64,000 bases of DNA from Candidatus Magasanikiibacteriota bacterium. GTDB taxonomy: Bacteria; Patescibacteriota; Patescibacteriia; Magasanikbacterales; UBA922. Shown piece after piece: positions 10,512 through 60,820 of the stretch (within the stretch, counting starts at the first letter, position 1; every line of letters starts with the position of its first letter). The stretch is taken from positions 99,719 through 163,718 of the forward strand of contig DMXO01000005.1 of the NCBI GenBank assembly GCA_003482855.1, read 5' to 3'. The position numbers were made by a program, and so were the translations under genes. The notes beneath the pieces were generated by a model, which was given only the letters and a program-made list of their open reading frames with translations, ran no database searches and had not been told where the DNA came from.

Positions 10512-10635
10512 GCAGGCGCGGTAGGAAATCTCACTCGGCACTTTGTGCCTCTTGGGGAAACCTTCTGGTTTCCCCAACCTTTCCTCAGCATATGAAACCT
10601 ATCGGTTTCACCCTTCCGCAGTTCGATTCCTCTCT
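10512..10635. repeat. tRNA-linked conserved structured element, copy B
   Basis: A 16-nt copy (gcaggcgcggtaggaa) of the tRNA-Trp 3' end, then atctcactc and a core homologous to copy A. Hairpin 1 carries compensatory changes (GGGGAAACC/GGTTTCCCC vs CGAAAACC/GGTTTTCG). It ends with GTTCGATTCCT, identical to the tRNA-Trp T-loop. Hairpin terminators bracket it on the plus strand. Confidence 0.6.
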
Positions 10636-45874: not shown

Positions 45875-46795
45875 TTAAAACCATCTCCTTTTTTTCATGA
45901 CAAAAATAATGAGTAAGATGATTGCGGCCAGACCAATAAACATACTCCATACTGCCCAAGGGTGCTCTGAATAGGGGAGGTTGATAATATTCATACCGTA
46001 TATACCAGACAACAAAGTGAGTGGAAGTAGAGATACCGATATGACCGTGAGTGCCCCGATTACTTTATTTGTTTTTTGGTTGATGAGAGATTCGACCGTG
46101 AGATGAAGTCCGTCGATCGTTTCTTTGTATGTATCAGCAATGATCCATAATTTATCCAGATAGTCTTTTATATTGTCGAAATAAATGCTAAGACTTTCAT
46201 CAAGAAAAAGTTTCCGTGTGTGGGACAACGTAGACATGATATATCGTTGTGGATCCAGTATACGACGATAGTTCAATACATTGCGTCTATGTAAGGCAAG
46301 ATGCCTAATTGCTCGGGCGTCTTGGTCTGTAGTGAAGATTTCGTTTTCCATGTCTGATATTTGTCTTCCTATATTTTCAAGGGTTGGCCGTGCTTGGCTG
46401 TATAGCGCCTCGAGTAATTTGTATAGGAGGTAACCCGGGCTTTGTGTCATCCATTCAGCTTTTATCTTTCTATTATTCATGCAACGATAAAAAAAATTTT
46501 TAATTTCTTTATTTTTGCCATGTTGGACAGTGACAAGATAATTTTCTCCTACGAATATATCAATTTCTTGCGAAATTATTTTTTTGCCTCCCTCTTTCCA
46601 TTGGGGCAGGAGAAAAACTAAAAAAAGATAGTTTTTATAAACATCTAACTTCGGATTTTGATTCTCACTTTGTATATCTTCTATGTCGAGTTGATGAAAT
46701 TTGTAGTGTTTTTTAAGATACGTGATTGATTCTTCATTCACTCTGTTTATGTTTATCCATGTGATATTGTCTTGCCTTATTTCTTTTATTGACAT
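45875..46795 (-). CDS. corA: CorA-family divalent-cation transporter
   Basis: Two C-terminal TM helices with the GMN motif (IYGMNIINLPYSEHPW). Confidence 0.8.
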   Translation of the reverse strand: MSIKEIRQDNITWININRVNEESITYLKKHYKFHQLDIEDIQSENQNPKLDVYKNYLFLVFLLPQWKEGGKKIISQEIDIFVGENYLVTVQHGKNKEIKNFFYRCMNNRKIKAEWMTQSPGYLLYKLLEALYSQARPTLENIGRQISDMENEIFTTDQDARAIRHLALHRRNVLNYRRILDPQRYIMSTLSHTRKLFLDESLSIYFDNIKDYLDKLWIIADTYKETIDGLHLTVESLINQKTNKVIGALTVISVSLLPLTLLSGIYGMNIINLPYSEHPWAVWSMFIGLAAIILLIIFVMKKRRWF

Positions 46796-49969: not shown

Positions 49970-50099
49970 AAGATATTGGATAAAAAATATTGAGATATTA
50001 AGATATTAAAAAGGAATTATAGTTTAAGAAGAGATTTTTTAATAAAAAATTCACCTTCACGGTGGATTTTGTTTTTTAGTTTTTTTTATGAAGATACTC

Positions 50100-50335
50100 A
50101 AGAGAATGGAATGGGCGCCGCGTGGGAGAACTCGTACAAACGTCGAGGAAGGAGGGTGCTCGAGTTCGTTCGGTTCTCACCCACGCGGCGTCCCATATAT
50201 GACTGAAAATGTGCGGCGGCCACCGCGTCTGGCTACCACACGGTAGCCATTTTCCCCGGTTCGCTACGTCCTTCACCCGCCCAGCACCCGCTGGGCAAGA
50301 ATAGTTTCACCGTTAGCTGTAGCCGCCGCACCGAT
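50100..50335. ncRNA. unclassified GC-rich highly structured element (candidate ncRNA)
   Basis: About 65% GC in a ~35% GC context. It contains GGGCGCCGCGTGGGAGAAC...GTTCTCACCCACGCGGCGTCCC (a long stem), GTGCGGCGGC...GCCGCCGCAC (a 10-bp perfect stem spanning 120 nt), GGCTACC-acac-GGTAGCC and CCCAGC-accc-GCTGGG hairpins. No credible ORF is present. Confidence 0.4.
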
Positions 50336-50493
50336 AATTATAGATAAGTAGTATTATCTATATCTATTGATGCGTCTGACTACAAATAGCATTTTTCAGT
50401 CTAAAGAACGGTAGACGAAATTATCATTAATTTGCCATTTTGTCAATAATATAGTATAATAATTTTTGAATTTTAGCTTAATGTAGCTAAATT

Positions 50494-60056: not shown

Positions 60057-60282
60057 ATATTCCACTAAATATTTTATTAAATATGTAATGGAACGGAGGC
60101 GAACGATGGACGTCTACCTCGATGTGTGATGGATCTCCGGTCCATCGTTTCCCTCCATCCCTCCCTTGTGGGAAAAAGAACGTGCGACCCTGCATCGCCT
60201 CATGTCAACCGCCACAGTCGTCGTGGCGATCAGGGTCTTCTTGTCAGGTCACCAGACCGGCTGATCGGGAACTCGGAGTTCC

Positions 60283-60606
60283 CTACGCGACCGGGTCGAT
60301 CCCCTTGGACTCGGGCGCTTCTTCGGCCAGCGGGGCCTCGGGCTCGGGCGCGGCGTCGGCTTCGGTGCCCTCGGCGGTGGGCTCGAGGACCTCGGTCGCG
60401 GTGGGCGCGGGGCAGCCCTGTCCACAGCCGCAGTCGGCTTCTTCGGCCAGCGGGGCCTCGGCTTCGGCGGCCTCGGTGACGCGGAAGTCCACAGGGAGCT
60501 CCCCGTGGTCGCGCAGGAACTGCTCGCAGGCCTTGTTGAGCTCTTCTTCAGGCATGACGCCCATGACGACCTTGGCGAAAATCGTGAGGAACTGAGTCTC
60601 GTTCAT
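60283..60606 (-). CDS. small acidic Cys-containing protein encoded in a high-GC island (107 aa from MNETQFLTIFAKVV...)
   Basis: AAGAGGT sits 3 nt upstream of the ATG. The codon third positions are almost all G/C, unlike every other gene here. It has internal EAPLAEEA direct repeats flanking DCGCGQGC. A GGGAACTC-c-GAGTTCCC hairpin follows the stop. Confidence 0.4.
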   Translation of the reverse strand: MNETQFLTIFAKVVMGVMPEEELNKACEQFLRDHGELPVDFRVTEAAEAEAPLAEEADCGCGQGCPAPTATEVLEPTAEGTEADAAPEPEAPLAEEAPESKGIDPVA

Positions 60607-60820
60607 GATACCTCTTTGGTAGGTGTGGCAGTTGACTACCTTAGAGAAACTACATGGTCTTGCGCGTTTTGTCAATTTTTTAATTTACATTTTGTTTTTT
60701 GAACAGATATGTGGATAACATGGGTTTTCATGGTTGCAAAGAATAGTAAAGTGGGATATAATGGATGTACGTGGGGAAGAGTGGGGAAAATGCTTGTCTC
60801 TCTACTTTCTAAATACAATT

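Follow-up and report, generated by a model that had tools for sequence, protein, structure and literature searches.

A GC-rich island between ykuD and uvrB

The 64-kb stretch of DNA analyzed here (hereafter the window, with positions counted from its first letter) carries an island of about 230 nt set between ykuD, which encodes an L,D-transpeptidase, and uvrB. The DNA belongs to an uncultured member of Candidatus Magasanikbacteria (CPR/Patescibacteria), represented for example by GCA_001783195.1. The neighboring genes encode CorA, a beta-CASP RNase, YkuD, UvrB, DUF218, MsrB, UvrA, an ATP-grasp protein, UvrC, MraZ and RsmH; no Cas gene was found nearby, and no reverse transcriptase, transposase, integrase or TnpB/IscB gene within 10 kb or more. 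Between positions 50108 and 50333 the GC content is 61.5% (60.2% over 50105–50335), and 100-nt windows from 50100 to 50300 give 58–64%, compared with 20–22% in the upstream flank and 23–36% in the downstream flank. The average of the window is about 38% GC, that of ordinary spacers in this genome 20–25%, and the tRNAs of the window lie at 56–65%. An earlier description of this locus, made from the sequence alone and called here the sequence-only reading, had reported a sharp GC-rich island of about 65% GC; the sharp island is real, and the figure was slightly too high, the measured value being 60–62%.

Five independent assemblies from different samples contain an identical copy of the island at the same position, and it is therefore not an assembly artifact or chimera; in four of them the sequence continues through the island from one flank into the other. 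The contig of the fifth, L005 (ENA ERZ27254750 k141_164444), starts inside the island at position 50218, at the start of the second of the two domains described below, which could reflect a drop in coverage or a branch in the assembly graph. A single copy of the island was found across the window and all the relatives' loci examined, as determined by nhmmer, repeat finding and covariance models.

The island is non-coding. Mechanical open reading frames of 41–66 aa exist within it, the GC content per codon phase is flat (0.55/0.61/0.65), and in a six-frame pseudo-protein search (E ≤ 1) no reading frame of the island resembles any of 5.8 billion predicted proteins. Given the flat codon-phase GC and the lack of a match among these proteins, the earlier statement that no plausible ORF is present was essentially right.

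Predicted fold of the island

The stems quoted in the sequence-only reading were all found at their places, and the two densely base-paired domains that it described are supported by the folds of both strands. The elements of the fold are the following:

50111–50196, minus strand: domain 1, a long hairpin of 86 nt with about 34 pairs, 22 of them G-C
50113–50131 with 50173–50194: long stem quoted earlier, GGGCGCCGCGTGGGAGAAC with GTTCTCACCCACGCGGCGTCCC
50148–50158, minus strand: apical loop of domain 1, 11 nt, taken from the folds
50197–50210, minus strand: linker between the domains, 14 nt, AU-rich and unpaired, AUUUUCAGUCAUAU
50211–50331, minus strand: domain 2, a three-way junction that would form the 5′ part of a minus-strand RNA
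50211–50220 with 50322–50331: GC stem quoted earlier, GTGCGGCGGC with GCCGCCGCAC
50231–50248: GGCTACC/GGTAGCC hairpin
50280–50295: CCCAGC/GCTGGG hairpin

In the predicted structure, domain 2 is closed by an 11-bp G-C stem (50211–50221 with 50321–50331) and encloses hairpins at 50230–50249 and 50277–50298. The minimum free energy of the island is −109.3 kcal/mol on the plus strand (z = −6.0) and −122.1 kcal/mol on the minus strand (z = −6.6), and for neither strand was any of 200 dinucleotide shuffles equally stable. Because shuffles can flatter GC-rich sequence, we used as a second control 3500 real windows of 226 nt from 22 high-GC contigs, with GC content regressed out. Compared with these, the stability of the minus strand ranks within the top 0.1% and that of the plus strand within the top 0.7%. 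By these models the island has an exceptionally stable predicted fold, with the minus strand favored.

The two domains contribute differently to the asymmetry between strands. Domain 1, which would be the 3′ domain of an RNA read on the minus strand, has a fold energy of −52.3 kcal/mol on the minus and −50.5 kcal/mol on the plus strand, whereas for domain 2 the values are −68.6 and −58.7 kcal/mol, a gap of 10 kcal/mol; three minus-strand G-U pairs in domain 2 become A-C mismatches on the plus strand (G-U count 3 vs 1). On the minus strand the sequence of the domain 1 apical loop is CACCCUCCUUC, similar to an anti-Shine-Dalgarno sequence, and on the plus strand it is GAAGGAGGGUG, similar to a Shine-Dalgarno sequence. 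This loop is the longest unpaired stretch within either domain, the linker between them being longer.

Comparison with known RNA families and elements

We searched the whole window with Rfam 15 at the gathering score, which returned tRNAs elsewhere and no family at the island, and the 451-nt region 50000–50450 at E ≤ 10, which returned only noise, such as miRNA precursors at 14–16 bits. These models took in SRP RNA, 6S RNA, RNase P RNA, tmRNA, riboswitches, group I and II introns, HEARO, retron msr and self-cleaving ribozymes. ARAGORN found four tRNAs elsewhere in the window, and no tRNA or tmRNA at the island. The sequence-only reading had proposed such a cmscan comparison, and the island matches no family in it, with only noise up to E ≤ 10. 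Its impression that the island is not RNase P RNA, tmRNA, 5S rRNA or 6S RNA agrees with this result; its suggestion of SRP RNA or another housekeeping ncRNA fails, there being no Rfam match up to E ≤ 10 and the island being absent or replaced in close relatives. A novel ncRNA, which it had also put forward, is still tenable, with no conservation or covariation found for the fold.

For SRP RNA, neither Bacteria_small_SRP nor Bacteria_large_SRP gave a cmscan match at the gathering score or at E ≤ 10. The hairpin of domain 1 is of roughly similar size to 4.5S SRP RNA, and its plus-strand apex, GGAAGGAGG, vaguely resembles the GGAAGGAAGCAGC of SRP domain IV, but the island has no GNRA-capped domain IV geometry, no covariance-model match and no conservation in relatives. 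6S RNA was rejected on the lack of an RF00013 match and on architecture, the island having two separate domains, whereas 6S RNA forms one long hairpin of about 180 nt that opens into a large bubble at its center. RNase P RNA gave no match, and about 230 nt is too short for the bacterial types A and B. The tmRNA candidate was dropped on the negative ARAGORN result together with the lack of an Rfam tmRNA match. More generally, the site is empty, differently filled or short-gapped in the syntenic loci of relatives; the island is species-restricted, which cannot be reconciled with a housekeeping RNA and gives no covariation to examine.

Other classes of element were also considered and set aside. 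A riboswitch or cis-acting leader is contradicted by the position of the best predicted uvrB promoter, downstream of the island, by the lack of a gene after the island on the minus strand, and by the lack of an Rfam riboswitch match. A MITE or REP-type repeat does not agree with a single copy in the window and the examined loci, nor with the lack of terminal inverted repeats or target-site duplications of at least 6 nt at the boundaries. Retron ncRNA, the omega-RNA of IscB/TnpB (HEARO) and bridge RNA would call for a partner gene, of which none is adjacent, and there is no Rfam msr or HEARO match. The only resemblance to class C group II introns is the location directly after a terminator; no Intron_gpII or D1–D4 match was obtained, and the island has about 230 nt versus about 600 nt or more. 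Domain 1 has AAC...GTT beside its inner stem, as in an attC site, but the RYYYAAC/GTTRRRY consensus misfits when compared by eye. The hairpin rich in GAAC and GTTC contains no GAAC-N4-GTTC palindrome, and a LexA box of the Cheo type was therefore rejected.

The same locus in related genomes

We compared the syntenic loci of 80 GTDB UvrB relatives, and the island is absent from them. The closest loci are arranged as follows:

L086 and L112, UvrB 86% identical: about 340 nt inserted at precisely this site
L087 and L088, UvrB 84% identical: ykuD stop abutting the uvrB start, no spacer (two independent assemblies)
L089, L110 and L111, UvrB 77–78% identical: no ykuD, gap of 79–175 nt

As judged from these sequences, the island is restricted to one species among the compared relatives. 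Single-sequence covariance models of both domains, run against the window, L086/L112 and the relatives' loci, returned only self-hits. The sequence-only reading had proposed conservation and covariation in related genomes as a check, and neither was found, the island being absent or replaced and its five copies identical.

The insert of L086 (3435–3775, corresponding to 9435–9775 of L112) has 50–64% GC and folding z values of −4.0 and −4.4. On both sides the sequence around the island aligns with that around the L086 insert: the left flank holds the terminator hairpin of ykuD, the right flank the uvrB promoter block (TTTGCCNTTTTGTCAATAATAT...). Between the two inserts there is no relationship, either by local alignment or by a covariance model with filters off, and the L086 insert has no Rfam match and no blastn match among phages and plasmids. 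An AATGGAAYGG motif seen by eye at both island edges was discarded, as it gives no significant alignment.

The region also differs in gene content. The CorA gene (45875–46795) is present in the window, L087 and L089 and missing from the otherwise syntenic L112 (6094–6168), which on the compared sequences is another lineage-specific difference.

Predicted transcription signals around the island

The following signals flank the island:

50046–50070: terminator hairpin, AAAATTCACC-TTCAC-GGTGGATTTT, with T-runs on both strands
50337–50366, minus strand: promoter-like site, TAGATA-18-TATAAT, 10 of 12 matches
50432–50460, plus strand: uvrB promoter-like site, TTGCCA-17-TATAAT, 11 of 12 matches, in a block conserved in L086
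50441–50446, minus strand: conserved TTGACA inside the invariant block TTTTGTCAATAATAT

The terminator hairpin ends ykuD on the plus strand. Its T-runs are GTTTTTTAGTTTTTTTT on the plus and TTTTTTATT on the minus strand; the terminator scan scored the plus strand. The hairpin is kept in the alignment with L086, where its homolog scores on both strands. As expected for a stand-alone sRNA gene, an intrinsic terminator is present at the 3′ end of the proposed minus-strand unit, formed by the hairpin at 50046–50070 with its minus-strand T-run.

On the other side of the island, the −10 element of the minus-strand promoter-like site ends 5 nt short of the closing stem of domain 2. This is a consensus match only, and in this AT-rich DNA four promoter-like matches were observed where 2.3 are expected. 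The −10 element paired with the conserved TTGACA is weak in the window (TAATTT), and in L086 the same TTGACA forms the −35 element of a predicted minus-strand promoter with an extended −10 and 11 of 12 matches (TTGACA-17-TG-TATAGT), which points into the insert of that genome. The uvrB promoter-like site lies downstream of the island and therefore places it outside the uvrB 5′ UTR, the promoter being a predicted one. Sigma-70-type promoters also precede RNA genes in this genome, as in tRNA-Thr (TTGTCA-17-TATAAT).

The window (50430–50460) and L086 (3848–3878) have the same uvrB promoter spacer, TTTTGTCAATAATAT, although their coding DNA is only 70–85% identical. The identity suggests an extra function, such as the −35 element of a divergent promoter or an operator. 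Shine-Dalgarno motifs (GGAG, GAGG or AGGA in the 20 nt before the start codon) occur in only 1 of 53 native genes.

Origin of the island and a second high-GC island

Deviant composition and absence from close relatives characterize horizontally acquired islets, and the island shows both. The proposal of a horizontally acquired fragment is accordingly still live, given the single-species distribution and foreign-like composition, although no donor was found. A near-identical match in an unrelated high-GC genome, which the sequence-only reading had named as one part of a pattern that would point to contamination or an inert fragment, did not appear in the phage and plasmid, viral, metagenome or protein searches. 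Blastn of the island against phages and plasmids gave nothing, nor did two 24-mers of the island against viral contigs. A metagenome scan with the 20-mer GCCCAGCACCCGCTGGGCAA gave 20 matches, all in high-GC contigs and with only 20–24 nt in common. They lie in unrelated coding contexts, antisense to ...AQRVLG..., for example in the C-termini of acyl-CoA dehydrogenases, and were rejected as chance matches. The scan is a weak negative for a donor, since the strain of the window itself was also not recovered by it. A search for target-site duplications and terminal inverted repeats at the island boundaries gave none.

A second high-GC island (island 2; about 60085–60700, 67–70% GC) lies between uvrC and mraZ, 10 kb from the first; the sister genome L112 lacks it. 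Island 2 is a minus-strand unit that ends at a terminator. Its open reading frame (60286–60607, minus strand, 107 aa; MNETQFLTIFAKVVMGV...) has a codon-phase GC of 0.87/0.46/0.74, with GC3 at 0.87, and is preceded by the Shine-Dalgarno-like AAAGAGGT, whereas 52 of 53 native genes have no Shine-Dalgarno motif. The frame is followed by a structured tail of about 200 nt (60085–60283, z = −3.8) and then the terminator. The protein has no Pfam domain, and two large protein searches for homologs returned only itself and two low-complexity repeat-protein matches. No donor was reached by this route either, as the ORF is an orphan and blastn against phages and plasmids gave only low-complexity Streptomyces matches. 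From its codon usage and ribosome-binding motif, island 2 looks like a recently acquired foreign micro-gene. An ORF with a GC3 of 87% and a Shine-Dalgarno motif indicates that this genome takes up small foreign pieces. When the first island, island 2 and the L086 insert were compared by local alignment, nothing aligned beyond the shared terminator flank.

Interpretation of the island

In the model that we lean towards, the species-restricted non-coding insert most likely is a small minus-strand transcription unit of its own, of about 230–290 nt. A sigma-70-type promoter, divergent from the uvrB promoter, would start transcription on the minus strand. The transcript would cross the 5′ three-way-junction domain (50331 to 50211), the AU-rich linker and the 3′ hairpin of 86 nt (50196 to 50111), and transcription would stop at the hairpin terminator common to the convergent ykuD (50070 to 50046). 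The resulting orphan sRNA, about 230–290 nt long, would be stable and heavily G-C-paired. We infer from sequence both that the island is transcribed and which strand is used; the minus-strand unit is favored because of the folding asymmetry, the promoter-like sites and the terminator with T-runs on both strands.

That the island is a lineage-specific, probably acquired, orphan gene for a structured sRNA is thus a tentative reading, which we place somewhat short of an even chance. It is favored by the exceptionally stable fold and the flat codon-phase GC, by the retention of about 61% GC in a genome of 38% GC with spacers of 20–25%, by the minus-strand promoter-like site that adjoins the closing stem, by island 2 being likewise a minus-strand unit that ends at a terminator, and by the insert at the same site in L086, which has a promoter pointing into it and the same two-strand terminator. 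Against it, no homolog was found and so there is no covariation, the five copies being identical; in the window, the −10 element of the conserved divergent promoter is poor, and promoter matches are weak evidence in AT-rich DNA. The lineage restriction and the nearby foreign ORF island also show that small foreign pieces sit in the intergenic regions of this genome with no demonstrated function.

This last point leads to the strongest competing explanation, an inert, horizontally acquired fragment. High-GC DNA would have been caught in the ykuD–uvrB spacer and would persist there unameliorated and functionless, its fold being a legacy of the donor (an ncRNA, a cluster of terminators or the end of a mobile element). 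We consider this a close rival, only slightly less likely than the sRNA gene. The occurrence in one species only, with the site empty in L087/L088 and otherwise filled in L086, would be accounted for, as would the contrast of about 61% GC with a background of 38% and the lack of conservation detectable by protein search and covariance models. Island 2, with its ORF of GC3 0.87 and its Shine-Dalgarno motif, shows recent foreign uptake only 10 kb away. On the other hand, no donor was found, and random high-GC DNA folds equally well only about 0.1–0.7% of the time. The insert is also bounded precisely by a promoter-like site on one side and a terminator on the other, in the better-folding orientation, and under random capture it would be an odd coincidence that one site holds unrelated structured inserts in two sister species. 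The same pair of inserts could instead mark an insertion hotspot, the island being a remnant of a mobile or DNA-level element (a MITE, an IS or integron end, a fragment of a terminator-targeting retroelement, or a recombination site) whose hairpins act as DNA. The position of the two inserts directly after a terminator hairpin and the near-palindrome of 86 nt formed by domain 1 are in line with such an origin, but we regard it as unlikely: the element is single-copy in the 64 kb and the examined loci, has no terminal inverted repeats or target-site duplications, lacks a transposase, integrase, RT, TnpB or IscB gene within 10 kb or more, and matches no group II intron, HEARO or other Rfam family. 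Its GC content, unlike that of the host, would also be unusual for a resident MITE.

The strong plus-strand fold (z = −6.0) could be taken to point to an element of a ykuD–uvrB transcript, namely a stabilizer in the 3′ UTR or read-through region, a processing site, or a regulatory RNA upstream of uvrB. The two genes are contiguous in L087 and so plausibly co-transcribed, and the plus strand exposes a strong Shine-Dalgarno-like sequence, GAAGGAGGGUG, in its apical loop. We judge such an element improbable, as an intrinsic terminator separates ykuD from the island, the best match to a uvrB promoter lies downstream of it and is conserved in L086, and the plus-strand fold is 12 kcal/mol weaker, with A-C mismatches for G-U pairs. 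In addition, no riboswitch or leader family matches, relatives do without the island, and the genome does not use Shine-Dalgarno sites. It is very improbable that the island is a divergent copy of a known housekeeping RNA (SRP, 6S, RNase P or tmRNA) that escaped the models, or that it is an artifact of assembly or contamination. CPR RNAs can be divergent, and the L005 contig does begin inside the island (50218), but there is no Rfam match at E ≤ 10, ARAGORN is negative, close relatives have no insert or a different one at this locus, and four independent assemblies join the flanks through the island.

If the island does encode a minus-strand sRNA, its mode of action is a matter of speculation. 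Because nearly every base is locked in helices, a protein-binding or decoy scaffold, or action through the 11-nt pyrimidine loop, may be more plausible than classical seed-pairing. The anti-Shine-Dalgarno loop was considered as a regulatory seed and rejected, native genes having almost no Shine-Dalgarno motif (1 of 53) and complementary sites not being enriched: sites complementary to the apical loop number 12 in the window, where 9.6 are expected. The analysis identified no target.

Relation to known systems and wider meaning

To our knowledge, the non-coding RNA biology of CPR bacteria is almost unexplored, and organisms of this kind cannot be cultured. If transcribed, the island would be an orphan structured RNA in a CPR bacterium. 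If not transcribed, it would be a small, unameliorated piece of foreign DNA, and its lesson would be that high GC content and a strong fold in an AT-rich genome do not alone make a housekeeping RNA.

High GC content in the intergenic regions of otherwise AT-rich genomes is an established way to enrich for structured ncRNAs (PMC6429828, PMC8632094, PMC11109978). The island resembles the GC-IGR/DIMPL candidates of the Breaker laboratory (PMC6429828, PMC8632094, PMC11109978) in being long, high in GC, non-coding, structured and outside any Rfam family, precisely the features for which these pipelines select. Such candidates are, however, accepted only with covariation among homologs, of which the island, limited to a single species, has none. 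Its predicted layout is also like that of stand-alone, trans-acting bacterial sRNAs with C-rich loops, such as the Rsa RNAs of S. aureus (PMC2790875): it would have its own promoter, stable hairpins and an intrinsic terminator, and would expose a pyrimidine-rich loop, CACCCUCCUUC, that could pair with purine-rich sites. In contrast to the Rsa RNAs, it is far more G-C-paired and larger (about 230–290 nt), shows no target enrichment or conservation, and belongs to a host nearly devoid of Shine-Dalgarno motifs (1 of 53 genes), in which the usual class of targets is missing. With small acquired genomic islets it shares a GC content off by more than 20 points, absence from relatives and proximity to another foreign island, island 2. 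It differs from typical islets in its size of about 230 nt, in carrying no gene and being bounded by no integrase, tRNA or repeat, and in a fold far stronger than that of typical high-GC DNA.

If the island is transcribed, the unrelated inserts in one slot and the nearby foreign micro-island would also hint at a rapid turnover of structured-RNA genes or foreign micro-inserts in reduced episymbiont genomes. A broader reading of the same sequences, to which we give little credence, is that the ykuD–uvrB spacer is a conserved expression slot of this clade, with a divergent promoter and a two-way terminator, in which unrelated, foreign-like, GC-rich structured RNAs are exchanged between species. 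The island, the L086 insert and perhaps island 2 would then reflect a cassette-like turnover of structured-RNA or micro-gene payloads. If true, such a slot would represent a previously undescribed mode of ncRNA gene acquisition, possibly from high-GC hosts or neighbors.

A further RNA candidate lies elsewhere in the window. Two paralogous elements of about 115 nt (5185–5300 and 10520–10635, minus strand; 77–81% identical) sit directly 3′ of tRNA genes, tRNA-Asp and tRNA-Trp. They match no Rfam family at the gathering score. Both contain an invariant hairpin, GGGUGAAACC-GAUA-GGUUUCAC, followed by CUGAGGAAAG, and their consensus fold has 31 pairs, five of them with compensatory double changes. 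On this comparison, the pair may represent a family of small structured RNAs, and the comparative evidence for it is better than that for the island.
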